From positions 1,732 to 65,731 of the forward strand of contig DASXOE010000092.1 in assembly GCA_036494575.1 (NCBI GenBank): a DNA stretch of 64,000 bases. The letters run 5' to 3'. The notes under the pieces are model-generated. The model ran no database searches. It saw only the letters and a list, made by a program, of their open reading frames with translations, and had not been told where the DNA came from. Of this stretch, positions 988 to 17,579 are shown piece after piece. Position 1 is the stretch's first letter. The number at the start of each line of letters is the position of its first letter. The stretch is from Polyangia bacterium (GTDB taxonomy: Bacteria; Myxococcota_A; Polyangia; Fen-1088). A program made the position numbers and the translations under genes.

Positions 988-2820
988 GTGCTAGACGGAA
1001 GGCGCGTGTCCGGTTCGGGGGCCATCGCGTCATTGGTGGACCTCCTCGAGGCGAGCCGCGCGCGCTTCGGCGCACGGCCGCTCTTCGCGACCAAGAAGGC
1101 CCAAGACGGAGCGGCCGCGCGCTGGCAGGAGACGACGTACGAGGGCTTCGGCGCGCTCGTCGATCGCCTGCGCGCTGGTCTGTCGACGCTCGGCGTCGGC
1201 GCGGGAGATCGCGTGGGGATCATCTCGGCCAACCGCGTCGAGTGGGCCGTAGCCGCCTACGCGACCTATGGCCTCGGCGCGGCCTTCGTGCCCATGTACG
1301 AGTCGCAGCTCGAGAAGGACTGGGCCCACATCGTGCGCGACTCGGGCATGAAGATCCTCTTCGTCTCGAGCCCCGCCGTGCGCGACAAGGTCGCGCCGCA
1401 CGTGGCCGCCATCTCGACGTTCGAGCAGCTCGTGCCGCTCTGGGACGAGGCCGCGGTCGCCACCTTCAATTCGCTCCTCGCGGCGCGGCCGCCCGTGCCC
1501 GCGGTGCACCCAGCCGGGAGCGACGTCGCGGCGCTGCTCTACACCTCGGGGACCACGGGGGAACCGAAGGGCGTGGTCCTCACGCACGGCAACATCGTCT
1601 CGAACGCCCTCACGCTGCGCGAGCTCATCCTCGCGACGGAGACGGCTGAGGACCACCGCTCGCTCTCCTTCTTGCCCTGGGCGCACGCCTTCGGCCACAC
1701 GGCCGAGCTGCACATGCTGCTCGCCTCGGGCGCCTCGATGGCCATCGCCGAGAGCGTCGAGAAGATCGCGGACGACATCAAGGATGTCAGGCCCACGGTG
1801 CTGTTCGCCGTGCCGCGCGTCTTCAACAAGATCTACGCGGGCGTGCAGCGGCTCATGGCGCTCGAGAGCGCCCCCATCCGCTGGCTGTTCCGGCGCGGCC
1901 TCGCCGCCGCTCGGAAGCGTACGCGGCGCCAAAGGCTCGGGCTCGGCGAGCGCCTCGTGCTCTTCCTGGCCGACGAGCTCATCTTCTCCAAGGTGCGCGC
2001 CCGCTTCGGCGGCCGCCTCAAGTTCGCCATCTCGGGCGCCGCCTCGCTCGCGCGGGAGGTGGCGGAGCTCATCGACGCCATCGGCATCGCCGTCTACGAA
2101 GGCTACGGCCTCACCGAGACGAGCCCCATCGTCGCGGCCAACGTGCCCGGACACCGCAAGATGGGCAGCGTGGGCCGCGTCCTCCCCGGCGTGCGCGTGG
2201 CGATCGACGGCGCGCTCACGGGCGATCCGGGGCAGGGCGAGATCGTCGTCTACGGCCCCAACGTCATGCGCGGCTACCACCGGCGCGACGACGAGACGCG
2301 CGCCGCCCTCACGTCGGACGGCGGCCTCAAGACCGGCGACATGGGCTACCTCGACGACGATGGCTACCTCTTCATCACGGGCCGCTTCAAGGAGCAGTAC
2401 AAGCTCGCGAACGGCAAGTACGTCGTCCCGTCGCTGCTCGAGGACAGGCTCAAGCTCTCGCCCCTCATCGCCAACGTCATGATCTACGGCGACAACAAGC
2501 CCTACAACGTCGCGCTCGTCGTTCCGAGCGGCGAGGGGCTGGGCGACGCGCGGGAACCGGGGCGGATCCGCAAGAAGCTCGAGGACGAGATCGCGCGGCT
2601 GTCGGAGGAGTTCAAGCGCTACGAGCGCGTGCGGGCGATCGTCGTCCTCGGCGAGGACTTCACGCAGGAGAGCGGGATGCTCACGCCGTCGCTGAAGTTA
2701 CGGCGCCACAATATTTTGCGACGGTGGCGGGGGGAGCTGGACGGGCTTTATGGGGCGGAGGAGTGCGGGATCGAGGCGGTGGCGAAGGGACGCGGTTCCG
2801 CGGCTCAGTCTCCTGACTGA
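988..2820 (+). CDS. long-chain fatty-acid--CoA ligase (ANL/AMP-binding superfamily, FadD-like)
   Basis: Contains LYTSGTTGEPKGVVLTH (AMP-binding P-loop), GYGLTETSP and TGDMGYLDDDGYLFITGRFKEQYKLANGKYV, the typical acyl-CoA synthetase motifs. GTG start at 988. Confidence 0.9.
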   Translation: MLDGRRVSGSGAIASLVDLLEASRARFGARPLFATKKAQDGAAARWQETTYEGFGALVDRLRAGLSTLGVGAGDRVGIISANRVEWAVAAYATYGLGAAFVPMYESQLEKDWAHIVRDSGMKILFVSSPAVRDKVAPHVAAISTFEQLVPLWDEAAVATFNSLLAARPPVPAVHPAGSDVAALLYTSGTTGEPKGVVLTHGNIVSNALTLRELILATETAEDHRSLSFLPWAHAFGHTAELHMLLASGASMAIAESVEKIADDIKDVRPTVLFAVPRVFNKIYAGVQRLMALESAPIRWLFRRGLAAARKRTRRQRLGLGERLVLFLADELIFSKVRARFGGRLKFAISGAASLAREVAELIDAIGIAVYEGYGLTETSPIVAANVPGHRKMGSVGRVLPGVRVAIDGALTGDPGQGEIVVYGPNVMRGYHRRDDETRAALTSDGGLKTGDMGYLDDDGYLFITGRFKEQYKLANGKYVVPSLLEDRLKLSPLIANVMIYGDNKPYNVALVVPSGEGLGDAREPGRIRKKLEDEIARLSEEFKRYERVRAIVVLGEDFTQESGMLTPSLKLRRHNILRRWRGELDGLYGAEECGIEAVAKGRGSAAQSPD

Positions 2821-3073
2821 GCCCGCATAGCGAATCCGTCAAAGAGCTAAATGAAACTCGACAGTTGAGGTGCGATGTCGCCCCCCGCTGGCGGCTCCGC
2901 TTCCGGGGCTGTGAGGGGAATGATTCCGTCAATGGCGATTTGGCGCCCGCGTGACATAAGGTCTTGAGGCATCATCCCTCACCGCTCTGCGCCGACCTGT
3001 TCTTTCTCATCGGCTCGGTACAAAGGCTCGAAGAGACCGGTCTGGGTTCAACCTGTAGACTGCGAAGCACTCT

Positions 3074-4279
3074 ATGTTCCTGACAAATCCCGCACCTTCG
3101 ACGTTCATCCATCGCGTTCAGGTGAAGAACTATCGCAGCATCGCAGCGTGCGATGTACAGCTCGGTGCGCTCACGTTCCTCGTCGGACAAAACGGTTCTG
3201 GGAAGAGCAACTTCCTAGATGCGCTTCGATTGACGGCAGATGCGCTCGTTCAGACGCTTGATCACGCGCTTCGAGACAGGGGAGGCATTGCAGAAGTTCG
3301 CCGCCGGTCAGGAGGACATCCGACCCATTTCGGGATTCGCCTCGACTTCTCGTTGCCGGACGGCCAAGCGGGTCACTACGCTTTTGAAGTAGGTGCCCGG
3401 CAAGGCGGCTCGTTTGTGGTCCGGGTGGAGGAGTGCGGGGTTGGGTCGCACTCGTATCGTGTGGAGGACGGCAATGTCGTTCGCTCATCGATGGCGACGC
3501 TTCCTGCGGCCAGTGAAGACCGCCTGTATCTCGTTACAGCTTCCGGTATCGCCGAGTTCCGAGCGGTGTACGACGCCCTATCGATGATGGGTTTCTACAG
3601 CTTGAACCCCGCAGCGGTACGCGCTCTTCAGACACCAGATCGTGGCGAGATCTTGAAACGAGACGGTGCAAACTTGGCCAGCGTTGTTGAGAGGATTGCT
3701 CACGCAAACGGAGGAGCTCTCCAGCAGAGAATTGAGGAATATCTCGCTCAGGTTGTGCCAGGGATCGAGGGAGTGGAGACCAAGAAATTTGGGCACATGG
3801 AGACGATCGAATTTCGCCAGCGCGTACAGGGAGCCGACAAGCCGTGGCGATTCCCTGCCATCAATATGTCTGATGGCACTCTGCGCGCTCTGGGCATATT
3901 GGTGGCGCTTTTTCAAAAGCCGGAACGCGGCAGGATTCCTCTGGTCGGGATCGAGGAACCGGAAGCGGCCCTTCACCCAGCCGCCGCAGGAGTCTTGCGG
4001 GATTGCCTCCGCGAGGCTAGCCGAAATACGCAGGTTATTGTGACGAGCCACAGCCCCGACCTCCTCGACGATCGCGACTTACCCGAAGATTTCCTCCTGG
4101 CTGTCGTTTCCGAGTTGGGTACAACGCACATCGGTCGGGTTGACGAGGTAACTCGATCCGCGTTACGCGAACACCTCTTCACGGCCGGAGAGTTGCTCCG
4201 TTCGGATCAGTTGCGGCCCGGCGATACGGCCAGGCGCACACCTGAACAGCTCCGTCTCTTCGATGGTTCGGCGCCTTGA
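3074..4279 (+). CDS. ABC/SMC/OLD-type ATPase (AAA_15/AAA_21-like)
   Basis: Walker A GQNGSGKSN near the N-terminus, Walker-B-like LVGIEEPEAALHP, and H-loop-like VIVTSHSPDLL. ATG start at 3074. The gene is visibly more A/T-rich than flanking genes. Confidence 0.85.
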   Translation: MFLTNPAPSTFIHRVQVKNYRSIAACDVQLGALTFLVGQNGSGKSNFLDALRLTADALVQTLDHALRDRGGIAEVRRRSGGHPTHFGIRLDFSLPDGQAGHYAFEVGARQGGSFVVRVEECGVGSHSYRVEDGNVVRSSMATLPAASEDRLYLVTASGIAEFRAVYDALSMMGFYSLNPAAVRALQTPDRGEILKRDGANLASVVERIAHANGGALQQRIEEYLAQVVPGIEGVETKKFGHMETIEFRQRVQGADKPWRFPAINMSDGTLRALGILVALFQKPERGRIPLVGIEEPEAALHPAAAGVLRDCLREASRNTQVIVTSHSPDLLDDRDLPEDFLLAVVSELGTTHIGRVDEVTRSALREHLFTAGELLRSDQLRPGDTARRTPEQLRLFDGSAP

Positions 4280-4842
4280 GACTGGGCTCAATCGTGGAAG
4301 GACATGGAGAGGTCCGAGCACTCCCAGTACTTCTCCGTCGTCTGTTGCCGGCGACTATAGAACTGCTTCCTCCCTTTCGTGTTCCGCGTATGCGCATCGT
4401 TAAGGACGGCGAACTCGAACGCACCGTCGAATTGGTGGCACGACAGGTTGGGCCCGGCGGCGCGATCCTCATCTTGCTCGACGCAGACGACGACTGCCCG
4501 GCGACGCTGGGCCCTCAATTGCGAGCACGAGCGCTCGCTCATCGATCTGATCGCCTTGTGTTCGTCGTGCTGGCCAAGCGAGAGTTTGAATCATGGTTTA
4601 TAGCGGCGGCTGAATCTCTCGCCGGAAAAAGAACCCTTAACACTGTCTTGCCATGGGTGCCCGAGCCCGAGAATATCCACGGGGCAAAGGAGTGGTTAGG
4701 GGTGAATATGGCGCCCGAGCGAGGCTACTCAGAGACGTTGGATCAGCCTGCGTTTGCCGCGGAAATGGACATCGAGATGGCCGCGCGAGCACCATCCTTT
4801 GCAAAGCTACTGAAGGATCTGAAAGGGTTGACCCCTGACTGA
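4276..4842 (+). CDS. DUF4276-like protein with TOPRIM-type acidic motifs
   Basis: The TTG start overlaps the ATPase stop (TTGA at 4276-4279). Has N-terminal IVEGHGEVRALP and central ILILLDADDDCP (TOPRIM-like Glu and DxD), then VLAKREFESWF. This pattern is as I remember the DUF4276 family that pairs with AAA_21-type ATPases. Confidence 0.7.
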   Translation: MRLGSIVEGHGEVRALPVLLRRLLPATIELLPPFRVPRMRIVKDGELERTVELVARQVGPGGAILILLDADDDCPATLGPQLRARALAHRSDRLVFVVLAKREFESWFIAAAESLAGKRTLNTVLPWVPEPENIHGAKEWLGVNMAPERGYSETLDQPAFAAEMDIEMAARAPSFAKLLKDLKGLTPD

Positions 4843-5706
4843 CTCTGTGGGAAGAGGCGCCGATCGAAAGGTTGTTCTTCTTTGCGTGTGCCCCGCGCGG
4901 TCGTTCAAAGAGGCGCCGAGGGCATCGGCGATCTTCATGACGGTGGACAGCTTGATGTCGGCTTTCCGTCGTGAGCGAGGCCTTGCAGATGCGCTTGAGC
5001 TTTTTCGGAGCGTCGCTGTACCAGAGGCTGCCCGATTCGTCGAAGGCGAAGCCGGCCGTGCCCGTCGAGACGTTGTCGACGAGCGCGTCGGTGAGATCGG
5101 CCGTGGTCATTTCTTGGGCCGGCGTGAAGTCACGAGCTCGTCGAGGAAGCCCACCCAGAGGTTCACGGCCTGGTCGAACGCGACGCCATTCGGGTGGTCG
5201 TAGGTCGAGGCGACGGGGCGCCTGCGGGCGTCTTCGGGCCGAGGATGACGTCGGGAGGCGCCATCGTCGACGCGCGGAGGTGCGCGGGCGTTTGAAACGC
5301 ACGGCCTTGCCCGGCGAGCGCCACTGCGGCGCGCACGCTCCAAGACGTGTTGCTCCTGTATCCTCTCGAGCAGCCCTTCGATCAATGGCGTTCTCGCCGC
5401 GTCGTCGATCGCAAAAAAACGTCGACGTTGCATGACGACGCGCCGTGATGCACAGGTCCGTATCTTCATCGCGTAGCCGAGATACGGTCGCTGGGTATCT
5501 CGCGCTCAATGGGGTACGGAATGCCCCGCCAATCTCGCGACGGTCTCGCGCTTGCACAAGGCGCCGCGTTGAAAGACCCAGCGCAAAGCCTATCGTTCGA
5601 AACTGTGTGCTGGTCGACGGTGAGCAAAACCTTTGACGGATATGTCGAGAGCGCGCACTAACCGGTTGAATCGCACGTCGGTACTTTTGCGGCGAGGACA
5701 AGGGAC

Positions 5707-6780
5707 ATGAGGAGTCGTGTTGTTGCAGCAGTTGTTGGAATCGGGTTCGCGTGCGTCACGATGCCGGCGCATGCGCGACATGCCGCTTGGACGCGCGTCG
5801 AGAGCCCGGCGTGCACGGCGGCGCACCGGCAGGCGCTCGAGCGCGTTCAAGAGGCACGCCTTCAGGAGGCGCACGAGCTGTTTGCCACCTGCGCGCGCGC
5901 GGCCTGCAGCGAGCTGACGCGCCGCGAGTGCACGGCCCGGCGCACGCGGCTCGAGTCCGACATCCCGTCGGTGGTCCCGCTCGTGACCGACGGCGCGGGC
6001 CAGCCCCGCGTCCTCGTGGAGATGCGCATCGACGGCCGCCTCGTGACGGCGCGCCTCGACGGAAGAGCGGTCCCGATCGATCCGGGCAAGCACCAGGTCT
6101 CGTTCAGCAACGACGACGGCGTGTTCGCGACGCGAACCATCGTGATCGTGCAGGGCGAGCGAAACCGCCCGATCCGCGTCGTCCTCCGGGCCTTGAAAGC
6201 GGACGGCCTGCCGACTGAGGCCCGCGCCACCGAGACGCCGCCAGTCGACGAATCGTCGAGCAGCGCTGAATCGTCGAGCAAGGCTGCTAAGGAGACAGCG
6301 GCGCCCGACGACGACGCCGCTACCAGCGCGCCATCGGTGGCGCGTCAGCACGCGCTCGACGAGTCCCCCGCCGCTTCGACGACGCGCGTGGTCTATCGAG
6401 AAGGCTCGCGCTCGCCGTTTGCGTACATCCTCGGCGGGCTCGGGGTGGCGGGAGTGGGCGGGTACGTCCTGCTCAGCACCTGGGGAAGGAAGGACAACGA
6501 CCTCATCGCTTCGCACTGCGGGATGACCCAAGACTGCCTGCCCGCGAGCATGGCGCACATACGCAAGCTCTATCTCGAGGCCGACATCTCGGGAGCCGCG
6601 GGAGCAGTCGCCCTCGCCGCAGCGACCTGGCTCTTCTTGAGGAAGCCAGTCGTGGAGGAGAGGCCCGCGGACAACGGTGTCTCGCTCCGATCGAAGTCGA
6701 AGCGACGAGTGTCGATCCAGACGCTCGATGTCCGGGCCAGCGCGTCTGGCGCCGCGGCAATGGTCGGAGGCACCTTTTGA
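5707..6780 (+). CDS. secreted/membrane-anchored hypothetical protein
   Basis: ATG at 5707. Signal-like N-terminus (VVAAVVGIGFACVTMPAHA), an acidic Ser/Ala-rich linker, and a predicted TM segment FAYILGGLGVAGVGGYVLL. Its stop overlaps the next start (TTGA at 6777-6780). Confidence 0.7.
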   Translation: MRSRVVAAVVGIGFACVTMPAHARHAAWTRVESPACTAAHRQALERVQEARLQEAHELFATCARAACSELTRRECTARRTRLESDIPSVVPLVTDGAGQPRVLVEMRIDGRLVTARLDGRAVPIDPGKHQVSFSNDDGVFATRTIVIVQGERNRPIRVVLRALKADGLPTEARATETPPVDESSSSAESSSKAAKETAAPDDDAATSAPSVARQHALDESPAASTTRVVYREGSRSPFAYILGGLGVAGVGGYVLLSTWGRKDNDLIASHCGMTQDCLPASMAHIRKLYLEADISGAAGAVALAAATWLFLRKPVVEERPADNGVSLRSKSKRRVSIQTLDVRASASGAAAMVGGTF

Positions 6781-7991
6781 GGCGCCGGGCGGCACTGTGT
6801 TCGTGCGTCGGGCCTGCGCTGCTCGCGCTCTCCGCGATCGGCTGCGCTCAACCCTTGGACTCCACGGCGACGCAGAGATCGGCGAGCACGGCCGACGGAG
6901 GGTCGGGAGCTTGCCCGCACCTCGACTATGGGAACGTGCCCAACCAAGGGCCCCAGGCGGGGATTCCCGCGCAGACCGTGACTCCTGGGATTCTGCTCCC
7001 TGGCGGGAGCCTCGCCTGCGATCCGACCACCAACGATCCGTGCGTCCAGACCGGCCTTCAAGCGATGGCCATCCTCGAGCAAGACTGCAGCAATTGCCAC
7101 GGCGAACAGGCTGGCGTCGCGAGTGGAGCTCCCCAGTGGAATTTTGTGCTGAACATAGACGAGATGGAGACGAGCACGATCGACACGGCTATCAACCCAG
7201 ACACGAACCAGCCCTGGAGGTTTCTGATCGCGGGCGACCCCGACAATTCGAGGATCTACGCCCGCATCGCGGCGGGCGCCATGCCGCCAGGCGATCAAAA
7301 TGGCGAGGCTCCCAAGCCGCGGCCGACGCTGAGCGACGTGTCGGTGCTTCGCCAATGGATCTCGAGCTGCCTCGGCGGGGGCACCGGTGGGCGGGCGGTC
7401 GGCACAGGCGGTCCCGACGCGATGGACGCCGGTGGTGAGGATGCGAAGGGCTCGGCGGCTGGAGCGGCGGGTGGACGAGCCGCGCCGGATGCCAATGTCC
7501 CTGGCGGCGGGGGGGCTGGCGGCTCGGGCGGATCCGGCGTCGTCGTCGACGGAGGTGCGCGCGACGCTGGCGCGGAGGCGCCCCTGTCGCAGCCTTACGG
7601 CGCGGCCAATTGGAGGCCAACGGCGTCGATCTCGGCGGCCGGCACCGCGCCACTGAACGCCTTCGACGGGTTGATCGCGACGCGTTGGACCACGGGCCAG
7701 AATCAAATGGGAAGTGAATCGTTCCTCGTCGACATGGGCGCCATTCTTCCGATCGCGCGGGTCGTTCTAGACGACACGATGGATCCTCAGGACTTCCCCG
7801 TGGCGTATACGCTCGAGGTCTCGACCAACAACAGGACCTTCAGAGTGGTCGCGATGGGCGCGGGCTCAACGGTGACCGACATCAGCTTTGCCCAGCTCGC
7901 GGCCCGCTACATTCGGATTAGTCAAACCGGTATGACACCCAGTCCGTCGGGCGGTTGGTGGTCCATCGACGAGCTCCGAATCTACCCCTGA
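6777..7991 (+). CDS. lipoprotein with PSCyt1-like CxxCH domain and C-terminal F5/8 type C (discoidin) domain
   Basis: Lipobox LSAIGC. CSNCHGEQ ... AGAMPP ... LRQWISSCL resembles the planctomycete-type cytochrome c domain. C-terminal NAFDGLIATRWTT ... ARYIRISQ ... WWSIDELRIYP is discoidin-like. Confidence 0.75.
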   Translation: MRRRAALCSCVGPALLALSAIGCAQPLDSTATQRSASTADGGSGACPHLDYGNVPNQGPQAGIPAQTVTPGILLPGGSLACDPTTNDPCVQTGLQAMAILEQDCSNCHGEQAGVASGAPQWNFVLNIDEMETSTIDTAINPDTNQPWRFLIAGDPDNSRIYARIAAGAMPPGDQNGEAPKPRPTLSDVSVLRQWISSCLGGGTGGRAVGTGGPDAMDAGGEDAKGSAAGAAGGRAAPDANVPGGGGAGGSGGSGVVVDGGARDAGAEAPLSQPYGAANWRPTASISAAGTAPLNAFDGLIATRWTTGQNQMGSESFLVDMGAILPIARVVLDDTMDPQDFPVAYTLEVSTNNRTFRVVAMGAGSTVTDISFAQLAARYIRISQTGMTPSPSGGWWSIDELRIYP

Positions 7992-7998
7992 GCATCGC

Positions 7999-9765
7999 GT
8001 GGCGAAGACGACTGCACACGCACGAGCGCACCTCTGCAGCCGCTGGAGCTGGGCGTTGAGCTACACGCTCTGCATCATGACCGTCGCGTCGTGCAAGGAT
8101 CCGACCAAGATCAATGTCGCTTCGACGAATCAACCTGACCCCGCGGGCGCCGAGCTCGAGGACTGCCCCGCGAGCGCCAATTGGCTGCCTACGACTCCTC
8201 AACTGATGCTTTTCAAGCCGAACGCGCACCCCGTCACGGAGTGCGCTTTCTATCGGGGTGGCTGGCAGAACTTCTTGATCGCGCTGCAGCCCGACGCCAA
8301 CGGGCAGCCGGCCCTGCTGTCGTATCCGACGATCGACGAGGTCTTCGACAGCTCTTTGCCGCCCGTCGCCAAGCGATCTTATCTCGGCGACATCAAGCAA
8401 GCGGGCGGCCGCCAGGTCCTCATCGACCAGAACGGCAACGCCGTCTATTACGGCATCCAGGTGAGCCAGTCATATGTCGACTTCATCGCGCAGAATGATC
8501 TGCGAACGCTCGACAAGGTCGTCAACGTCGGAACCGATAAACCGCGGCTCTTCTTCCCCGCCGGCATCGTGGAGTTCAAGGACGCTTGGCAGGTTTACGA
8601 CAAGAACAATCCCCCTGCGGACATAGACACCTTCGTCACCGCGGACACCACGATTCCGACGCTCTCCGTGGATCCGAGCACGGGACTGCTCGTCGAAGAC
8701 AGAAGCAAACCGATTCCCGCCTCCGTCAGGCTGCTTGCCATCCATGTCGTGTACACGTACCCGGGGCATCCGGCGTTCATTTGGGCCAGCTTCGAGCACA
8801 CCGGCGTGCCTGACGGTCAATCGGATACGGCGGCTACGGACAACTGGCGAGATCTGGCGCCCATTCGTCAGGACGACAAGATCCCTGATCTTCTCAACGA
8901 CCCGTCGGAACGAAAGGACTCGACCGTTATCAATGCAGATGGTGTCCATGGAGCCCCGGCCCACGCCTTCGTTCTCTATCACGCGGGCGTGACGGCGCAG
9001 GACGCCAATAGCCCACCGCAGGAAGCCGTGCTCGCGAAGCACTTCAACGCCGCGACGCAAAACTTCGGGGCCGATCAGGCAACCTCCATTTTTCGGTTGT
9101 TTCCCGCCTCGAAATCGAACGACCCGCAGCCGGACGGCGCGATTACGTCCTTGAACAGCAACGTCCAGCACATATTCGCGGCCGCCAAAGCCTCCCTTGC
9201 CCCCACCGACCGGCGCGGTCACTATCGACTGGTCGGTGCGCAATGGATGGACAAGCCGGAGTTTTTCGGCCTGGGCGAGACGCTCGAGAACGACGCGACC
9301 AGCCCGCTCTTCCAAGATCCGACGTCCGACATATACAAGGCGGCCGACGCGATGGTTGGCCAATCCGCGGAACGGCAGGCTGCGTTTGATGCAGCGAAGG
9401 CGGCGGGCCAAGATCCGCTCGGCGTTGCCAAAACCGACGTAGGCGCGAACGGGTCAGACAGCGTCTTTTCGATACTCGCGGGCGAGGATCGAATGTCGAG
9501 CGCCGCGATGGAATCGTTCACCCAGGACACCGGCGCGTTCCCGAATTGTTTCTCTTGTCACAACACACAGGATGTCGTCGCGAAGGGCGTCCCTTACGCG
9601 CATGACACGAGCCAAAAGATCATCTTGAAGAAGTCGCTCTTGAACGTGAGCCACATTTTCTCGCAGTTCGTGCTCGACGAGTGTCCGGACTCCGCGCCAG
9701 CGGTCTCAATGTCGTGTCCGCAGTGTCAGGACACGCCGCGCCCGAAGCAGTGCACCTTGCCGTAG
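7999..9765 (+). CDS. secreted hypothetical lipoprotein with C-terminal CxxCH motif
   Basis: GTG start at 7999 (the exact start is uncertain). Lipobox-like IMTVASC. Normal protein-like composition over 588 aa. FPNCFSCHNTQD near the C-terminus. Confidence 0.7.
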   Translation: MAKTTAHARAHLCSRWSWALSYTLCIMTVASCKDPTKINVASTNQPDPAGAELEDCPASANWLPTTPQLMLFKPNAHPVTECAFYRGGWQNFLIALQPDANGQPALLSYPTIDEVFDSSLPPVAKRSYLGDIKQAGGRQVLIDQNGNAVYYGIQVSQSYVDFIAQNDLRTLDKVVNVGTDKPRLFFPAGIVEFKDAWQVYDKNNPPADIDTFVTADTTIPTLSVDPSTGLLVEDRSKPIPASVRLLAIHVVYTYPGHPAFIWASFEHTGVPDGQSDTAATDNWRDLAPIRQDDKIPDLLNDPSERKDSTVINADGVHGAPAHAFVLYHAGVTAQDANSPPQEAVLAKHFNAATQNFGADQATSIFRLFPASKSNDPQPDGAITSLNSNVQHIFAAAKASLAPTDRRGHYRLVGAQWMDKPEFFGLGETLENDATSPLFQDPTSDIYKAADAMVGQSAERQAAFDAAKAAGQDPLGVAKTDVGANGSDSVFSILAGEDRMSSAAMESFTQDTGAFPNCFSCHNTQDVVAKGVPYAHDTSQKIILKKSLLNVSHIFSQFVLDECPDSAPAVSMSCPQCQDTPRPKQCTLP

Positions 9766-9995
9766 GCCTGCGGTGGCGCCGCTGCGATACGCGCGTCGGT
9801 ATCGCCACGAACGACGACGATACCGATCGTGGGTATCGACGGCGAGCGTGGCGTCGCCATACGGGCATCGCGCGGGTGAGCGGTCCGGGTAACCTGCACC
9901 GTCCAGCGTTGGTCCTGACCTTGCACGGTGGCGACGCGATTGAGGGTAGCGCTCGAGGGTTCTATTGATCATTGCATTGCGTGGAGGAGGTTCGA

Positions 9996-10808
9996 ATGAA
10001 CGTGCGCGCGCGGTTGGTTGTGGTCGCATTGTCACTTCTGGGCGGAATCTGGGCCGTGGACTGTGGGGGAGGCGACGAGCCGACCAAGGTGCCGGTCTAC
10101 ACTGCGGGAAATGGCGGCACGCAGTCGGGCGCAGCGGGTGAGTCAAGCACGGCCGGTTCGAGTGCGACCGGCACGGCGGGCGCGGCCGGTGAACATGGCG
10201 AGGCGGGAAGGACAGGCGAAGCGGGCAGCGCCGAGGCAGGGACCACGGGCGCGGCGGGACGCGACGCCGGCAGCTCAGGCGAGGCGGGCAAGGGCACGAC
10301 GGGCGCCGCGGGCAATGGCGCCACGGGAGCCGCCGGCAGCCACACCACGGGCGAGGCCGGCACGACGGGCGCGGCGGGCAGTGGCACGACCGGCGCGGCC
10401 GGCGTCGGCAATCCAGGCTCCGCCGGGAGCGGCACGACGGGCGCCGCGGGCAAAGGCGTGGGGGGGGCAGGTGGCACGACCGGAGGGGCTGGCAGCGGCG
10501 GTGGCGCGACGCGCGCTGAGGTGCAGGCCATCCTCAACTCCAACTGCATCGTCTGCCATGGCACGTCGGGGGGAATGAGCCTGGCCGACGTCTCGGGCAT
10601 CGTGGGCGTTGCCTCGAGCGAGTGCGGCGCGAAGATGCGCGTCAGTGCCGGAGCGCCGACGACGAGCTACATCGTCGACAAGCTGATGGGCGCTTCGCAG
10701 ATGACGGGCGGCTGCTTCTCAGGGATGCGGATGCCGCGCGGACGGCGGGCGCTCTCGGCCGCGAACATCGCGACGATCGTGTCCTGGATCCGCGCGGGCG
10801 CGAACTAG
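9996..10808 (+). CDS. lipoprotein with Gly/Ala/Thr-rich repeat linker and C-terminal PSCyt1-like CxxCH domain
   Basis: The ATG at 9996 is preceded by GGAGGAGG. Lipobox WAVDCGGG. Repeated G(T/S)TGAAG units. C-terminus LNSNCIVCHG ... MRMPRG ... IVSWIRAGAN matches the PSCyt1 pattern. Confidence 0.75.
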   Translation: MNVRARLVVVALSLLGGIWAVDCGGGDEPTKVPVYTAGNGGTQSGAAGESSTAGSSATGTAGAAGEHGEAGRTGEAGSAEAGTTGAAGRDAGSSGEAGKGTTGAAGNGATGAAGSHTTGEAGTTGAAGSGTTGAAGVGNPGSAGSGTTGAAGKGVGGAGGTTGGAGSGGGATRAEVQAILNSNCIVCHGTSGGMSLADVSGIVGVASSECGAKMRVSAGAPTTSYIVDKLMGASQMTGGCFSGMRMPRGRRALSAANIATIVSWIRAGAN

Positions 10809-10838
10809 GGTCGAGACGCGTCTGCGCTGTTTCGGGCG

Positions 10839-12020
10839 TCAATAAACGCCTGGGCGCGCGAGGCGGACGCGGTAGAGCTTCGAGACCGCGGAGATGTAGA
10901 GCGTCTTCGCGTCGGCGTCGGCGAAGGCGCATTCAGACACGCGGTCGCCAGGTCCGAGGCCGGGCAACGTGATCACGCCCCAGAGATTGCCCGAGCGCGG
11001 ATCGAAGACCTGAACGCCCGCCACAGTGCCGACGTAAAGGTTTCCGTCCAGGTCGACGCACATTCCGTCCGGCGTCGATTCGGTCATGGCGACGACCGTG
11101 CGCATCCCGGTGAGCCCGCTCGGCTGGACGTCGAACGCACGGATGAGACGCTGGACGTTGTAGCCGACGTAGAGGACCTCCTTCCTCGGCGAGAGCGTGA
11201 TTCCGTTCAGACCCGTGTCGACGCCCGTGTCGGTGGGCAGCGCGTACGAGAGCGCCCCTTGCGGGTCGACTCGAAGGAGCTGATGGGCGACGCCCGTATC
11301 TGAAAAAACGAGCGACCCGTCGGGGAGCGCCGCGATGTCGTTTGGATTCTGGATGGCGAGGCCTCGATAGTCCTTGATCGCATCAGACCACGTGCCGTCA
11401 TCTCCCCTGCGCGTGACGGCGCCCTTGACTTGACACTGCATGGCTCCGCATTCGGCCGTGACGAGGTGACCGGTGGAATCCAAGTCGAGCGCGTTGGCGC
11501 CGTTGCTCATCATGCGGAATGGATCGAATTGGCTCGGCGGGGTCAGCATGTAGATCGTCACTCCGTAGGGATCCGAAAGAAGGTACGACGAAAGAGCCGG
11601 CACCCATCGCGCGCCTTCGACGAAGTCAAAGCCGCCGCGCACGAGCTCGACGGTGCCCATGCCCTCGAGCGGCGACGTATGCGGCGCGTCCTCGGGCGCT
11701 TCGGCGGGCCCGTCCGCCGCGTCGGCGCTCGGCGCCGGCCGATCGGGGGTTTCGGCTGCAGTGCCGGTCCCTCCCTCGGCTGCGTCCACGGGCGCGGGCG
11801 GCCCGCCTCCGGCCGGCCCACCCTCGGGGCCGCCGTGCATCGGTGAGGAGCCGTCCGCCGCGCCGGTTCCCGACGACGGGCGCGCAGGCGCGTCATTGCA
11901 GCTCGCGGCCTGCGCGGCGAATACGATCACCAGCACCTCGATCAATCGGGAGACGTCTTTCAGCCCGCCCTGCGCGCCGCGCTGGCGCAACGTGAGAGGA
12001 CCGTCGCTGAGCTTGCCCAA
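10839..12020 (-). CDS. SMP-30/gluconolactonase/LRE-like beta-propeller lipoprotein
   Basis: Lipobox AAQAASC. Repeated propeller-blade motifs: NGANALDLDSTGHLV, PNDIAALPDGSLVFSD, LNGITLSP, PDGMCVDLDGNLYVG and TLYISA. Confidence 0.8.
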   Translation of the reverse strand: MGKLSDGPLTLRQRGAQGGLKDVSRLIEVLVIVFAAQAASCNDAPARPSSGTGAADGSSPMHGGPEGGPAGGGPPAPVDAAEGGTGTAAETPDRPAPSADAADGPAEAPEDAPHTSPLEGMGTVELVRGGFDFVEGARWVPALSSYLLSDPYGVTIYMLTPPSQFDPFRMMSNGANALDLDSTGHLVTAECGAMQCQVKGAVTRRGDDGTWSDAIKDYRGLAIQNPNDIAALPDGSLVFSDTGVAHQLLRVDPQGALSYALPTDTGVDTGLNGITLSPRKEVLYVGYNVQRLIRAFDVQPSGLTGMRTVVAMTESTPDGMCVDLDGNLYVGTVAGVQVFDPRSGNLWGVITLPGLGPGDRVSECAFADADAKTLYISAVSKLYRVRLARPGVY

Positions 12021-12088
12021 GGATCACCAATACACTAGGGATGCTGTCCTTCGCCAGCGCTGGCCCCTCCCGACGGCACAAGATGCGG

Positions 12089-13408
12089 TCAGTCGCCCGC
12101 CAACGAGCGCCACAGCTCGCCAAGCTCAGGGTCCGAGAGCGCGAGCCGCAGCTCGACGATCGAGGTGGCGCGATCGACGGAGGCGTTCTCGAGGACCCTG
12201 ATCCAAGGCGCGAGCTCCCGCCCCGCGGCCAGCGCGCGCTGCCGAAGGCGCGGCAAGGCCGATGCCCACCTTTGCGCCGGAATCTCACCGGACAAGGAAG
12301 CGCGCACCACGATCGAGGGCTCGCCCGGGCTCTGTACGACGACGCTGATCGCGTGGGGCGCCTCGTTGGAGCCGAGCGAGAGGGCTTGCCGCGCCCATGG
12401 CTCGTTCAAGTCCACGCCGCTCACGATCGCGAGATCGTCAGCGCCGAGCGCCTCGCCCTGGGCGTCCAGGCGCAGGCGCAAGGACAGGCCATCGAAGGCG
12501 ATCGCGGGCGGCTCGGCATCGCCACCTGCGTCGCGCGCGGCAGCGGGCTGCGCCGACGCGGCGGTCAGCAGCGAACCGTAGGCGCGCGGCGCCACGACGA
12601 CCAGCCCGGGCGCGGCCATCATCACCAAGCGGGTGTCGTCTTCGGCGGCCGTGGAGCCGTCCGAGCCGAACTCATCGGTTCGCGCCCGGCGCTCGGCGAT
12701 CGGATGCCCGTCCTCTACGCGCCAAGCCAGCCGCTGACCGGCGGCCTCTGCGCCGCGATTCAGGGCCGCGCGCATGTCGTCCTCGGCGAGATGATGACGC
12801 GCGGCCAGGAACGTCGACGCGGGCGAGCGCGGGTCGGGCGTCGCGATCACGAGGGTGTCGAAGGCATCGTAGAGATCGAGCTCGGTGCCCCGCAGAAGGT
12901 CGCTCATTCCTGGCACGCGCACGATGAGATCGCGCGCCGCCTGCGCGAACGGCGTGGCTTTCAGGCGATCGAGCCTGATGAAGAGCGTCAGTCGTGACCC
13001 CTCGGGACCGAAGCCCACGAGCTGCGTGACCTCTGCGGGGACGTCCGATCGTTCCGGCGGAGTCTTCGGGCCGCTCTTCGCGGGCGCTTCTTCGCTCTCG
13101 CGCGGGTGAGCCCGCGGCGCGGAGCGCGGACGCGGGGGCGCGCGCGGCGGAACCCGTGAGCGATTCTCGTGGTCGCGCGCCGCTCTCGAGGACGCGCGAT
13201 CGAGCTCCGCGCCCACCGTGGGCGCTCCGGCGAGGATCGTGACCTCGACCGGACCGCTCGTGGGCGCGCGGCGGAGCGTGACGGCGAGCGGCACCGCGTG
13301 AAGCGCCACCGACACGAGGACGCCCGCGCCCCAAATCCATCGTTGCTTGTGACGCCAATGAAATATTCGAGGCGTCACGCGTTCATCCTGTCGCGCGTCG
13401 GTATGCAT
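12089..13408 (-). CDS. membrane-anchored hypothetical protein
   Basis: Preferred ATG at 13408 (MHTDARQ...). N-terminal TM segment WIWGAGVLVSVALHAVPLAV, a Pro/Arg-rich linker, then a ~330-aa domain of ordinary composition. No family recognised. Confidence 0.6.
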   Translation of the reverse strand: MHTDARQDERVTPRIFHWRHKQRWIWGAGVLVSVALHAVPLAVTLRRAPTSGPVEVTILAGAPTVGAELDRASSRAARDHENRSRVPPRAPPRPRSAPRAHPRESEEAPAKSGPKTPPERSDVPAEVTQLVGFGPEGSRLTLFIRLDRLKATPFAQAARDLIVRVPGMSDLLRGTELDLYDAFDTLVIATPDPRSPASTFLAARHHLAEDDMRAALNRGAEAAGQRLAWRVEDGHPIAERRARTDEFGSDGSTAAEDDTRLVMMAAPGLVVVAPRAYGSLLTAASAQPAAARDAGGDAEPPAIAFDGLSLRLRLDAQGEALGADDLAIVSGVDLNEPWARQALSLGSNEAPHAISVVVQSPGEPSIVVRASLSGEIPAQRWASALPRLRQRALAAGRELAPWIRVLENASVDRATSIVELRLALSDPELGELWRSLAGD

Positions 13409-13620
13409 TCTGTTCACATTTCGGAGCGACAAAACGCCGCACCTCTTCGGGGCGACATTCCAATGCGACAAATCGCCGCAACGCTTTCGAAAAAATACCA
13501 TTGCACGTCGACTTCGCTTGCCACGGTTGTTTTCCGATCGCAGTATGCACACCACGTCGCTGTCGTTCAATCCGGTTCCAAACGAAGTTTGGGCCCAACG
13601 CCAAAGGTTGCGAGGTCGCA

Positions 13621-16600
13621 ATGAAAAGTCCAGGTTTGTCCCGGTGGGTGGTTTTGGCAGGTGTCATCTCGACGGCAGGCTTGACGGCCAGCGCGGCCCT
13701 CGCGTCGCCGCTGCTGATTTACACGCGGTGGGTCGGCGATCCCGAGCTCGACCCGCGTAATCCCCCCGGCGGTTTCATCTCGTATTGCGACTTCGGAACA
13801 CAGGGAAACGCGAGCGTCTACAACTGCGTTCCAAACCAGAAGTTCGACTCCCCGGACGGCGCGGACGACATTCCGTCGCTCCCCGATCCTCTCGGGGGCA
13901 TCGGCGCGCTGGATCTCAACGGCGACGGGAAGCAGGACTTCCTGGCGCTCACTGGCGTGGAAGCCGGACAAATGTGGGCGCTCGCCGGCTCGGTGGAGTT
14001 CACGCCGGGATTCGGCTCGGTGGCCGTGCACGTCCCGCCCGCGTTGTTCCCGGACGCCAGCGCCGATCTGGGCAGCAAGACCAACGCCGTGGGCTTCACG
14101 GTGGCCTCGGGCTCCGATAAGAAGCCGAAGCTCTTCGTCGCGCGAACGACGAACGGCACGGATCTGATTGTCGACATCTTCAATGTCAACGGCGGCGTGC
14201 CCACCTCCGTGCTGCTGACGGTTCCCGGCATGAGCACGGTGTCGCGCTCGGCCGGCGCCGACTTCCTGGGCTTCACGGCGGACGACGAGGACGGCGACGG
14301 CGTCGCCGAGCTGATGGTGGCGCACGCGGCGCCGCCCGGCACGGACCACACGCTCATCAACGTCTTCGACATCAATGGCGCGCCCCTTCACACGGTGACG
14401 CTGAACCTGGATCCGGTCGCGAGCGACAGGGCAGTCTCGACCTTCGACGAGACCTACGTGGGCGGGTTCGCCCGCACGCAGATCGTCAACGGCAGCGGGC
14501 GGGAGTTCGTCATCCTGACGGTCGACCATTCGCCGACGACGCTCGGACCCCGGCCGGGGTTCCCCATGAAGTTCACGCTGTGGCGGTTCGACGGCAACGG
14601 GGCGCTCGTGGCCAGCTTGCCCAACCTCCTCAGCGTGCCGTTCTTCTCGGGCGCCGTCGTCATGGGCATGACCGGCATGACCGGCAATGACGACAACTGC
14701 AATGGCATAGACGAAGACGGCAACGGCAAGATCGACGACGGCTACGTGGTTAAGACGTCGACCTGCGGAGTCGGCAGTTGCCAGGTGACGACGAGGTCCT
14801 CTTGCGTCGGCGGCGTCGAGACCCCGGCGGCCGTCTGTCAACCGAGACCGCCGTCGCCGGAACGGTTGAACGGGTTGGACGACGATTGCGACGGCGTCGT
14901 CGACGACCTTCCCGATCTCGCGGACTGCAATCCGGGCCAGACCGATTGGTGGTGTTGCCCGGGCGGCGCGGACGTCCATTTCGTCGTCAACTCGACGAGC
15001 GACACGCAGGACGAGGCCACGGCCGCCACGAGCTGCCTCCCCGTGGGCGTCGCGCCAGCCAACGCGCTCTGTAGCCTGCGCGGCGTCGTGCGGCGCGCCG
15101 AGCAGCTGCGCCAGCGTGACAACCATCGGCCGGCGTGCCGCGTGGTCGCCCAGCTGACCCCGGGCGACTACCAGATGAGCCGAAACGATGGCAGCTCGTT
15201 CCTCAACTTCGGCGGGGGCATCCTGACGCTCGAGGGCGCGGGAACCGCCGCCAATTCCACCGTGATCGAGCCGGCGCCAACGGCCCCGGCGGGGCGGCTC
15301 ATGTGGACCGGCCTTCAGGTCAGTGAAGCCGTCGCCAACCAGCTCGGCGAGCACAGCCCGCAGCTGACGATACAAAACCTCAGGATGCGCGGCGGAGACA
15401 GCGGGGACGTCTCGCAAGCGGGCGGCGGGGCGGTTGCGATGCTCGCCCCCCAGACCGGAGCCGTGCTCACGATCCAGGATTCAATCTTCGATCAGAATCA
15501 ATCCCGACAAGAGGGGGGCGCCGTCCAGTTCTGGACGAGGGGTACGCTGACCGTCCAGCGCAGCGTGTTTCGGAACAACGAGACGAGCGCGGCGCTCGTC
15601 AACGCCCGCGGCGGCGCCATCTCGGCGGCCGTTGGCGCCATCGTGCACATTGAAGACTCGACGTTTGTCGGCAACTTCGGCAAGTTTGGCGGTGCGATCG
15701 CGCTCGACCAGGTCTCGTCGACTCTCGTCAACGACACCGTCAGCCAGAACGCCGGCGGCGTCGATGGCGGGGGCGTGTTCGCGAATGGAGGGACTCTGTC
15801 GTTGCGATTCAACACCCTCTTCAACAATGCCATGGTTTCGACGGACGACGGTCCGCGCGCCGGCGCAGGTCTATTCACCATCGACACGACGCTGAGCGCG
15901 TTTGGCAACATCATCGCCGGCAGCGACTTCTTTCCGGTGCCGGGCTTCGACACGGCCACCTCTCCGGATTGCTCCGTGAGCTTCGTCAGCGTCCCGCGCG
16001 CCGTGACGTTCGGATCGAACTTGATTGGTGCCGGCGGCGGCGACTGCGCGTTGATCGGCGCGCCCAACGGGCTTCTGATCGGCAGCGCGACGGCGCCGGT
16101 CAAAGCGCAGGTCAACCCGTTGCCGGCTCTACGCGGGCCGAACGACATCCTCTGCAAGGCCGGCTTCCCGAAGGGAAGCAACGCCAACTGCGTTCCAATC
16201 TGTAACGGCATGGCGACCTCCGCGAGCTGCGTCAACGTGCCCCAAACCACCGCGCCCTTGAGCCCGGCCATCGCGGCCTTCCCCACGGGGGCGTCGCCCA
16301 GCGGCGCGGACGACAGCTGTCCGCTCGATGATCAGCGCCTCTTTTCGCGCCCCGACGCGCGTTGCACGCTGGGAGCGATCGACACGAATGCCACGATGTT
16401 GGCTCTCGGCAACGGCAACATTCAGTTCTCGATTCGGCTTCCCGGGCCCGCGGCAGCCTACGTCGAGGCCTTCGCGCGCCAGAACGGCGTCCAGAACGTC
16501 TCGGGCGACATCCGGTCGAGTCAAGTCGCCAACGCCGACGGCAGCTTCACCTACAGCAAGATCGTGTCGGGCAGCAGCTACCACACGGGCGATCACGTCG

Positions 16601-17034
16601 ACGTGAGGTTCTACTACTATCGAGCCAATTCGCCGGGCATCTTCGTGCCCGGACCGAGCAGCACGGTCTGGTACCCGGCGACCACGTACCGGCGGACGAC
16701 GGCTACGCCCATCCCGACCATTTGTCGGCAGACGAATGGCGACATGCGGTTCGCGTTGACGCTGGGCTCGCACCAGGCCTATGTCGAGGCGTTCGCCCAG
16801 CAGAACGGCGTCCAGACGGTCTCCGGCGCGATCACGAGCTCGGCGGTCGTCAATGTCAATGGCACGGTCACCTACACGCGCTTCGTGCCCGCGAAGAGCT
16901 TCAAGTCGGCCGACGTGATCCGGGCGCGCTTCTATCATTACGAGGCGAACGCCGCGGGGACCTTCGAGCCGGGGCCAGGAGAGCAGATCTTCTATCCGAG
17001 CGTCGTTTACAGCTCGGCGCCCGTCTGTCCGTAG
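13621..17034 (+). CDS. large secreted mosaic protein (FG-GAP/VCBS-like, MopE-like metal-binding motifs, parallel beta-helix repeats, duplicated C-terminal domain)
   Basis: ATG at 13621 with signal peptide MKSPGLSRWVVLAGVISTAGLTASAALA. Has DLNGDGKQDF and DEDGDGVAELMV (FG-GAP-like), then NDDNCNGIDEDGNGKIDDGY and LDDDCDGVVDD (myxobacterial putative metal-binding motif). GGAV/GGAI-containing beta-helix turns recur. Two ~94-aa tandem repeats lie at 16408-16689 and 16732-17010. Confidence 0.85.
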   Translation: MKSPGLSRWVVLAGVISTAGLTASAALASPLLIYTRWVGDPELDPRNPPGGFISYCDFGTQGNASVYNCVPNQKFDSPDGADDIPSLPDPLGGIGALDLNGDGKQDFLALTGVEAGQMWALAGSVEFTPGFGSVAVHVPPALFPDASADLGSKTNAVGFTVASGSDKKPKLFVARTTNGTDLIVDIFNVNGGVPTSVLLTVPGMSTVSRSAGADFLGFTADDEDGDGVAELMVAHAAPPGTDHTLINVFDINGAPLHTVTLNLDPVASDRAVSTFDETYVGGFARTQIVNGSGREFVILTVDHSPTTLGPRPGFPMKFTLWRFDGNGALVASLPNLLSVPFFSGAVVMGMTGMTGNDDNCNGIDEDGNGKIDDGYVVKTSTCGVGSCQVTTRSSCVGGVETPAAVCQPRPPSPERLNGLDDDCDGVVDDLPDLADCNPGQTDWWCCPGGADVHFVVNSTSDTQDEATAATSCLPVGVAPANALCSLRGVVRRAEQLRQRDNHRPACRVVAQLTPGDYQMSRNDGSSFLNFGGGILTLEGAGTAANSTVIEPAPTAPAGRLMWTGLQVSEAVANQLGEHSPQLTIQNLRMRGGDSGDVSQAGGGAVAMLAPQTGAVLTIQDSIFDQNQSRQEGGAVQFWTRGTLTVQRSVFRNNETSAALVNARGGAISAAVGAIVHIEDSTFVGNFGKFGGAIALDQVSSTLVNDTVSQNAGGVDGGGVFANGGTLSLRFNTLFNNAMVSTDDGPRAGAGLFTIDTTLSAFGNIIAGSDFFPVPGFDTATSPDCSVSFVSVPRAVTFGSNLIGAGGGDCALIGAPNGLLIGSATAPVKAQVNPLPALRGPNDILCKAGFPKGSNANCVPICNGMATSASCVNVPQTTAPLSPAIAAFPTGASPSGADDSCPLDDQRLFSRPDARCTLGAIDTNATMLALGNGNIQFSIRLPGPAAAYVEAFARQNGVQNVSGDIRSSQVANADGSFTYSKIVSGSSYHTGDHVDVRFYYYRANSPGIFVPGPSSTVWYPATTYRRTTATPIPTICRQTNGDMRFALTLGSHQAYVEAFAQQNGVQTVSGAITSSAVVNVNGTVTYTRFVPAKSFKSADVIRARFYHYEANAAGTFEPGPGEQIFYPSVVYSSAPVCP

Positions 17035-17105
17035 TCGCAGACGTATCGCCCCGACCATCGGACGATCGACTATCGGACGATGGACGATATGATTGTCTTG
17101 GCCGC

Positions 17106-17579
17106 ATGAGCATGTCGATCACGAGGGTCACGTTGTTGGGCGCCCTGGCATCCGGGCTGGGGCTCCTCGTCACCACGACACAAGGGTGTGACGGCACTGC
17201 TGGGTCTGGGGGCCCCGCCATGGAAGCGGGCTTCGCCGGCGCGACCGACGCGAGCGCGACGGACGCCGGCGCGACGGACGCCGGCGCGATGGACGCCGGC
17301 GGCGGGGACACGACCGATGCGGGCAACGCCGGCGCGGCCGGCGTTGCGGGCGGGACCTCGGGCACGGCTGGCTCGACGCCGGCGACCTGTGACACGACGT
17401 GCGCCAAGGCCGACGCGTGCTGCAACGCGATCAACGTCACCTACGACCACGGTGCGGACAAGTGCGCGTACGCGACGATGTGCGCGGCCGGGCAGGGAGC
17501 GGATGCCTGCGCGATGTATTTGCAAGTCCTGCCGCAGCTTCTGCTGCCCGGAATGCCGTTGCCGGCCGCGTGTGAGTGA
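17106..17579 (+). CDS. small Cys-rich lipoprotein, hypothetical
   Basis: ATG at 17106. Lipobox TTTQGC, a repeated (T/M)DAGA linker, and a Cys-rich C-terminus TCDTTCAKADACCNAINV...CAAGQGADACAMY. Confidence 0.6.
   Translation: MSMSITRVTLLGALASGLGLLVTTTQGCDGTAGSGGPAMEAGFAGATDASATDAGATDAGAMDAGGGDTTDAGNAGAAGVAGGTSGTAGSTPATCDTTCAKADACCNAINVTYDHGADKCAYATMCAAGQGADACAMYLQVLPQLLLPGMPLPAACE

Follow-up and report, generated by a model that had tools for sequence, protein, structure and literature searches.

A divergent, standalone HEC-01 gene pair, predicted to encode an ATPase and a TOPRIM-like protein, as a candidate immune module in a Polyangia bacterium

The stretch of DNA analysed here, referred to below as the window, comprises 64,000 nucleotides (nt) of contig DASXOE010000092.1 from a Polyangia bacterium (assembly GCA_036494575.1, positions 1,732 to 65,731 of the forward strand). 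It carries two overlapping genes that we assign to HEC-01, a family of candidate immune modules. Gene A (HEC-01A; 3074..4279, plus strand) starts with ATG and encodes a predicted ATP-binding cassette (ABC)-type ATPase of 401 amino acids (aa), while gene B (HEC-01B; 4276..4842, plus strand) starts with TTG and encodes a DUF4276 protein of 188 aa, a TOPRIM-like putative metal-dependent nuclease. The start codon of gene B lies over the stop codon of gene A in the plus-strand tetranucleotide TTGA (4276..4279), and, to judge from the sequence, this 4-nt overlap makes translational coupling of the two genes probable. The TTG start is credible because homologues begin with M-[KR]-L-x-x-IVEG at the same position. 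A first-pass annotation, made from the letters of the window alone, had described the overlapping ATPase and DUF4276 open reading frames (ORFs) at these positions; both ORFs and the overlap were confirmed exactly, and the motifs that it had quoted (Walker A, IEEPE, TSHSP, IVEGHGE and DADDD) were all found at the residues given.

The composition of the pair differs from that of its surroundings. The guanine–cytosine (GC) content is 0.59 in gene A and 0.58 in gene B, and stays at 0.57–0.60 over approximately positions 2800–5000, as compared with 0.65–0.72 on both sides. At third codon positions the corresponding values (GC3) are 0.62 and 0.60, against 0.78–0.94 in neighbouring genes; five neighbours, the first of which encodes an acyl-CoA synthetase, gave 0.93, 0.83, 0.78, 0.78 and 0.92. 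Both profiles agree with the lower-GC islet, most visible at third codon positions, that had been noticed at the outset.

Both proteins match the PADLOC models of HEC-01 end to end. Gene A matched HEC-01A (PDLC04178) with E=3.4e-168 and 557.8 bits, residues 8–397 aligning to positions 5–395 of the 399-position model, and gene B matched HEC-01B (PDLC04196) with E=5.2e-68 and 226.9 bits, residues 1–184 aligning to positions 1–190 of 197. The two genes are adjacent and on the same strand, as the HEC-01 definition asks. Other PADLOC models matched gene A far more weakly (AriA 1.2e-29, mad3 5.8e-28, Old 4e-23, NsnB and AbiLi 2.3e-22 each, GajA 4e-19). Because the HEC-01 matches of both proteins are full length and all other models score far lower, the pair is, on profile evidence, a divergent member of HEC-01, a family already catalogued in PADLOC and published. 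The two-gene module of ABC ATPase and TOPRIM-type nuclease proposed in the first-pass annotation is the same as the published description of this family.

Gene A is, as judged from its motifs, an ABC/SMC-head-type ATPase in which Walker A, signature, Walker B and H-loop motifs are intact. Its Pfam matches are AAA_21 (1e-28), a family annotated as 'putative AbiEii toxin, Type IV TA system', AAA_15 (2.4e-22) and SMC_N (1.5e-14), and it also matches RecF and Rad50 models. The catalytic motifs, all on the plus strand, are invariant or nearly so across 49–54 partner ATPases, the residue counts below referring to 49 of them. The Walker A motif or P-loop GQNGSGKS (residues 38–45; 3185..3208) is conserved in the partners, with G38, N40, G43, K44, S45, N46 and F47 invariant. 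In the ABC signature-like motif MSDGT (residues 265–269; 3866..3880), S266, G268 and T269 are invariant and M265 and D267 at least 90% conserved. The Walker B motif IEEPE (residues 293–297; 3950..3964), followed by ALHP, aligns with IDEPELYLHP of Old and IEEPEMYLHP of TsOLD, and G292, E294, E295, P296, E297 and P302 are invariant. The H-loop TSHSP (residues 324–328; 4043..4057) corresponds in the alignments to STHSP of OLD proteins; T324 is invariant in it, and H326 and S327 reach at least 90% conservation. The relationship to OLD is also seen in the alignment of gene A with the ATPase region of P2 Old (hhalign probability 96.9%) and in matches to the PDB sequences 6P74 (3.7e-8) and GajA (1e-5). 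A single-sequence structure model of the ATPase reached a mean predicted local distance difference test score (pLDDT) of only 41.4 and was discarded.

Gene B matches Pfam DUF4276 (PF14103) with 54.3 bits and E=2.7e-14 (residues 7–182 on positions 1–191 of the 192-position model), above the gathering cut-off of 30.2 bits. Its IVEGHGE motif (residues 6–12; 4291..4311, plus strand) contains E8, which lies where strand 1 ends and may be the catalytic glutamate of a TOPRIM site; V7, E8 and G9 are invariant in an alignment of 44 sequences (set A1), and E8 is at least 90% conserved among 137 DUF4276 sequences. The motif DADDD (residues 69–73; 4480..4494, plus strand), which extends to LLDADDD from residue 67, closes strand 3 and contains D69-x-D71, a DxD that may bind metal; in set A1, D71 is kept in at least 90% of the sequences, and E sometimes takes its place. 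A second conserved acidic cluster, E103-F-E105-S-W107 (4582..4596, plus strand), lies just past strand 4. Six residues, G9, D69, E105, W107, K138 and S174, do not vary across the 137 sequences, and E103 is kept in at least 90% of them. The AlphaFold2 (AF2) model of gene B (pLDDT 93.1; predicted template modelling score, pTM, 0.88) comprises a strand at residues 2–7, a helix at 10–23, short strands at 28–34, a helix at 46–58, a strand at 63–70, a helix at 75–89 and a strand at 94–101. This order, b1-a1-(b2)-a2-b3-a3-b4, fits the TOPRIM arrangement along the chain, and the model sets E8 just past strand 1 and D69-x-D71 where strand 3 ends, the canonical TOPRIM places. The N-terminal Glu and central DxD to which attention had initially been drawn are therefore conserved at canonical positions.

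Since our own fold and profile statistics, given below, were not significant, we accept the TOPRIM assignment of gene B on the placement of these motifs in the predicted structure together with two published structural analyses, that is, mainly on the literature. One peculiarity of gene B may be mentioned here: five residues that are present in all 43 aligned homologues are missing from it, near residues 25–27 (window 4351–4356), between helix 1 and the short strand 2, and its catalytic residues are unaffected.

DUF4276 is a large family, with 4,393 matches in a 90%-clustered sequence set and 3,339 clusters at 50% identity. Relatives of the pair are spread patchily across phyla at ~50–60% identity, and the best non-self homologues, ~60% identical, come from unrelated phyla. 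A homologous ATPase gene is found directly upstream and on the same strand in all 79 DUF4276 loci with upstream sequence (out of 85 loci in total, six with less than ~160 nt upstream having been left out). In seven annotated homologous loci the two genes either overlap by 1–4 nt or abut. When loci are compared pair by pair, divergence in A goes along with divergence in B (Mantel r=0.74, a value reached by 0 of 2000 permutations), which argues that partners are rarely swapped. One homologue, P0142 (609 aa), is a natural fusion in which an AAA_21/AAA_15 ATPase (residues ~9–340) is followed by a DUF4276 domain (419–598); it has parallels in OLD and in PARIS, where AriAB also occurs in merged form. 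The low GC content is likewise not peculiar to the window: the pair lies 2–8 points below its flanks in 7 of 7 long loci (L081, L082, L084, L085, L166, L167 and L168, pair at ~6700–8600), so that the low-GC bias goes with the module whatever the host; the difference is largest in the window.

The closest available relative, a Polyangia metagenome-assembled genome (DATKFB010000098.1, hereafter L001), matches positions 1–2785 of the window at 92.4% nucleotide identity. After ~250 unmatched nt, L001 resumes matching at window positions 17590–17666 and 17747–17836, that is, at the 3′ end of a convergent small gene, and its contig ends 149 nt later, which limits the comparison. Approximately 14.8 kb (2786..17589), with the pair at its left edge, are thus absent from this site in L001 (compared over L001 7105–7506), where the acyl-CoA synthetase gene has the homologue of that small gene ~250 nt behind it. 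The flanking acyl-CoA synthetase also assigns the window to a Polyangia (Myxococcota) bacterium; exact-sequence look-ups with this protein and with the ATPase of gene A gave no match. Because the codon composition of the pair is foreign and the closest relative does not carry it, we conclude that it was horizontally acquired, as the first-pass annotation had proposed on composition; the comparison of synteny with a close relative bears this proposal out. No tRNA gene was found in the window, and the islet has no bounding direct or inverted repeats or att-like sites, only short repeats at chance level. A comparison of ten neighbouring proteins with PADLOC gave no match at E<=1e-5. The pair is a standalone accessory module, located outside Hma/MADS loci and outside any recognizable defence island or mobile element, and A and B are an obligate, co-inherited and probably translationally coupled pair foreign to this genome. 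The GC content of the 14.8-kb segment itself is heterogeneous (0.58–0.77), and the segment may stem from more than one event.

In architecture the pair is indistinguishable from HEC-01 as described: an ABC ATPase of ~400 aa is followed, on the same strand, by a TOPRIM-like DUF4276 protein of ~190–200 aa. It differs from the described HEC-01 in standing alone outside any Hma/MADS locus and in its Polyangia host, and the nearest database sequences are only ~60–64% identical to it. Mad3 and Mad4 of the MADS system likewise combine an AAA_15/21 ATPase with a DUF4276 partner, and genetics there supports a role in phage defence. Membership of MADS itself was rejected: no NCBIfam model reached its cut-off for the pair, gene A scoring 98.8 bits with the MAD3 model (antiphage_MADS3) against a cut-off of 420, and the mandatory MAD6-8 and methyltransferase genes are absent nearby.

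The likeness to PARIS (AriA and AriB; Nature 2024, PMC11464382), with which the pair had at first been compared, holds for the architecture, that is, a split between sensor ATPase and TOPRIM effector with co-evolving partners and occasional fusions. It does not extend to the components. AriB is a DUF4435 protein of ~300 aa, whereas gene B is a DUF4276 protein of ~190 aa, and PARIS membership was rejected, neither DUF4435 in Pfam nor AriB in PADLOC being found at E<=0.1 and gene B matching DUF4276 and HEC-01B models only. Nor can gene A be equated with AriA, since its match of 1.2e-29 is to a 304-position, generic AAA_21-type model, as compared with 3.4e-168 for HEC-01A, and no AriA chain appeared among its PDB sequence matches at E<=0.01. 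In a further difference from PARIS, no viral or satellite carriage was detected for the relatives of this pair.

OLD proteins (P2 Old of class 1, TsOLD and BpOLD) and GajA have a homologous ATPase head and share the combination of ATPase with a Glu/DxD nuclease. They are single chains with an OLD-like_TOPRIM domain (PF20469), whereas here the candidate nuclease is a separate DUF4276 protein. Two ORFs and no match to PF20469, which the P2 Old control matched at 1.2e-17, led us to reject membership of the OLD/GajA group, and Gabija was further rejected in that Pfam and PADLOC detected no GajB UvrD-like helicase among the neighbours. An AAA_15/21 ATPase with a small TOPRIM-like partner is also found in AbiL (AbiLi/AbiLii), in RloA/RloB-type pairs and in Menshen (NsnB/NsnC). 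The AbiLi and NsnB matches of gene A are far below that to HEC-01A, and no AbiLii, RloB or NsnA/C partner is present here; with NsnB at only 2.3e-22 and the other components of the NsnA/NsnB/NsnC set not nearby, Menshen was rejected as well.

HEC-01 (Hma-embedded candidate 01) was described as a pair of ABC ATPase and TOPRIM-like protein embedded in Hma loci, and HEC-01B was found to be structurally similar to TOPRIM proteins, with a metal site that it has in common with BpOLD by superposition (Payne et al., bioRxiv 10.1101/2024.01.29.577857). DUF4276 and RloB have been placed in the Toprim superfamily, and DUF4276 has been noted in Mad4 of MADS and in some of the NsnC proteins of Menshen (NAR 2025). 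Mad3–Mad4 (MADS3-4) has been grouped with OLD, Gabija and PARIS among the systems that combine ABC ATPase and TOPRIM (PMC11464382). Deletion of mad3 or mad4 lowers MADS defence, both genes being accessory to the MAD6-8 core, and mad5 can be deleted only if mad2 or mad3 is deleted as well (bioRxiv 10.1101/2023.03.30.534895). In E. coli B, protection by one HEC-01 representative has been reported for at least one of the phages T4, T5 and T7 (Nature Communications 2026).

We favour, with a probability of about 0.6, the explanation that the pair is a standalone, horizontally acquired HEC-01 module of innate immunity of the abortive-infection type, with the ATPase as sensor and the nuclease as effector. 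Proteins A and B would form a complex in which A, acting as sensor and regulator, would keep the TOPRIM-type metal-dependent nuclease B inactive until a cue of infection is sensed, candidate cues being a phage protein or an aberrant nucleic-acid structure. Binding or hydrolysis of ATP by A might then license or release B, which would cut nucleic acid and halt phage replication, perhaps with the loss of the cell itself. Like OLD and Gabija, B might attack DNA, or else tRNA in the manner of PARIS. The division of labour between sensor ATPase and nuclease effector is suggested by analogy with OLD, Gabija and PARIS and by the genetics of MADS. The likely role in phage or plasmid defence that the first-pass annotation had advanced finds support in the way the HEC-01 family is described in the literature, where the record of phage assays is mixed.

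A number of observations weigh against this explanation. In E. coli MG1655 dRM, Payne et al. (bioRxiv 10.1101/2024.01.29.577857) saw no protection from their representative with any of the phages tried, and the text reporting the positive result gives no fold-protection value and no mutant controls (Nature Communications 2026). The question raised at the outset, whether the DUF4276 variant had ever been tested, thus has an answer in one negative result and another that is modestly positive. In the window, no integrase, transposase or other defence gene lies within ~12 kb of the pair, and a scan of viral contigs revealed no relatives of it. As regards the nuclease, a Foldseek search of the gene B model against PDB and BFVD gave no match at E<=1e-3; the matches obtained were mostly to generic alpha/beta folds, with the PARIS chain 8ux9_A at E=0.087 and DnaG-type TOPRIM proteins at E 0.3–0.5. 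The DUF4276 profile found 0 matches among PDB sequences at E<=10. When compared by hhalign with the single P2 Old sequence, DUF4276 aligned nowhere significantly, and comparison of the 137-sequence DUF4276 alignment with a 115-sequence OLD TOPRIM alignment yielded 23 columns at E 0.02–0.04 and a probability of 1–2%. The controls of this procedure gave 96.9% for the ATPase against the Old ATPase and E=0.57 for DUF4276 against the Old ATPase; the Old TOPRIM region used alone as a search query retrieved just five fragments.

The last of the points that tell against an immune role comes from a Thermoanaerobaculia-type lineage in which the pair has a fixed position, the gene order being Radical_SAM, Metallophos_2, Pyr_redox_2, [ATPase-DUF4276], ferrochelatase and DUF2911. 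This order was seen in loci L082–L085, L166 and L167 (~3600–10700 in each) and in the short loci L088, L089, L091, L096, L118 and L124. The genes form a row on one strand with gaps of 10–50 nt, and flanking proteins are 70–91% identical between loci. A position so stable and operon-like, amid housekeeping genes, is not what defence modules usually show. Within this lineage the pair (A 70–79% and B 64–72% identity) diverges faster than its flanks (74–85%). As an aside, the block of pair plus ferrochelatase in L166 is directly followed by Type_ISP_C restriction-type and RVT_1 reverse-transcriptase genes (9795–12646); in no other sampled context were further possible defence genes seen close by.

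The fixed position beside ferrochelatase could be taken to mean that the pair is a housekeeping module of genome maintenance, in which an SMC/RecF-like ATPase would act with a TOPRIM-like partner in DNA repair or processing, much as RecF does with the TOPRIM protein RecR. The SMC_N, RecF and Rad50 matches of gene A fit this idea, as do a genomic context that is no defence island here and the finding that most HEC candidates show no enrichment in the vicinity of defence systems, HEC-01 being one that gave no protection (Payne et al., bioRxiv 10.1101/2024.01.29.577857). We nevertheless regard it as rather unlikely. A housekeeping module would hardly be missing from a 92%-identical relative, be strongly foreign in codon composition, show lower GC content than its flanks in all seven long loci and be scattered across phyla at ~50–60% identity; even in the lineage with the fixed context, the pair outpaces its flanks. 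Moreover, relatives sit in Hma/MADS immune loci and aid defence there, and one representative protects against phage. Alternatively, the pair may be selfish, either as an addiction unit similar to toxin–antitoxin (TA) systems, in which a nuclease toxin restrained by the ATPase would bring about post-segregational killing, or as a weapon in competition between mobile genetic elements that targets plasmids. A tightly coupled two-gene unit that moves horizontally would suit this role, as would the annotation of AAA_21 as a putative type IV TA toxin and the inconsistency of the published protection results; the need to lose mad2 or mad3 before mad5 can be deleted further implies that such an ATPase contributes to a self-toxic activity. 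A selfish module of either kind is unlikely all the same, given that no plasmid, transposon or integrase context was seen here or in the seven annotated loci, and that stable vertical inheritance in one lineage needs no addiction. It also overlaps mechanistically with abortive infection, and is to that extent only partly distinct from the immune module that we favour.

The structural comparisons raise the question of whether the DUF4276 protein is a nuclease at all, rather than a TOPRIM-like or Rossmann-like adaptor or a subunit that binds metal or nucleotides and takes part, for example, in ATP-driven binding or sequestration of nucleic acid. This would be in keeping with the generic folds returned by Foldseek and the non-significant alignment with the OLD TOPRIM. 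Weak Pfam cross-matches to RloB (8) and DUF3226 (8) among the 137 DUF4276 members are no help, as they are no stronger than the noise matches to Glycos_transf_2 (12), and the literature that we found on DUF4276 contains no nuclease assay for any such protein. What makes a non-nuclease decidedly unlikely is the conservation of acidic residues at the canonical TOPRIM positions, past strands 1 and 3, together with the two independent published structure-based assignments, one of them superposed on the metal site of BpOLD. In addition, the sole segment aligned by hhalign is the correct Glu motif, IVEGhGEv..P.L against LLvEGKTE..Lp.i (LLVEGKTE in Old). Finally, the pair adjoins an 864-nt remnant of a decayed gene, no recognizable promoter was found for it and gene B has the five-residue deletion relative to all aligned homologues, all of which might indicate a decaying, non-functional passenger on a variable segment. 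With both ORFs intact and of full length relative to the hidden Markov models, all invariant catalytic residues kept and the coupled overlap preserved, this is most improbable.

Taken alone, the locus adds little: it is a divergent representative, from a myxobacterium, of a family for which PADLOC already has models. Its value is as one more natural example that HEC-01 can be self-contained and mobile with its two genes alone, away from Hma/MADS loci, and that genomes 92% identical can differ by its gain or loss. The myxobacterial copy, together with native myxophages, also offers a setting in which the inconsistent results obtained in E. coli might be resolved. Questions as to the biochemistry of HEC-01 and its possible domestication in one lineage concern the whole family and not this locus. 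It is tempting to speculate that DUF4276 pairs are a class of their own among the OLD-like ABC-ATPase/TOPRIM modules, one that makes do with a minimal, ~190-aa effector and has a role beyond phage defence, although we consider this quite doubtful. If it were true, the fixation next to ferrochelatase would point to a domesticated function in nucleic-acid surveillance or repair, and domestication could explain why heterologous phage assays are inconsistent.

The pair is flanked by two gaps without intact genes, which had been put at ~250 and ~860 bp and measure 253 and 864 nt; the ORFs listed in both do not have the native coding GC3 signature. The upstream gap (2821..3073; GC 0.585) is the presumed promoter region, in which no sigma-70-type consensus was found. 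Signals for sigma-70 promoters and intrinsic terminators were not above the expectation from shuffled sequence, and Rfam gave no match. In the downstream gap (4843..5706), the high-GC codon phase moves from 2 to 1 to 0 between frames along 4960–5320, and these jumps indicate a frameshifted, decayed gene. Its fragments, on the minus strand, include a stretch resembling an XRE-type helix–turn–helix (HTH), ADIKLSTVMKIADALGASL, which Pfam HTH_26 matches only at E=0.14; the remnant as a whole has no Pfam match better than E=0.07 and no tblastx match in the homologous loci retrieved. It is not part of the conserved module, since homologous loci have just 10–60 nt after gene B.

The other genes of the 14.8-kb segment encode secreted-type proteins (F5/8 type C, cytochrome c, SMP-30/SGL and FG-GAP) and are of higher GC content; integrase and transposase domains were not found among them. 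One ORF of 588 aa in this segment (7999–9765, plus strand), which gave no match in Pfam or PADLOC, has a GC content of 0.61, lower than that of most of the window. At the far end of the segment, the small gene on the minus strand at 17583–17860 encodes a lipoprotein-like N-terminus (…LVIGAIGC…) and a conserved C-terminus (…FKIKYSISKGN*); relative to L001 it appears to be broken by an insertion or deletion of ~80 nt and a change of frame, and may be a pseudogene in the window.

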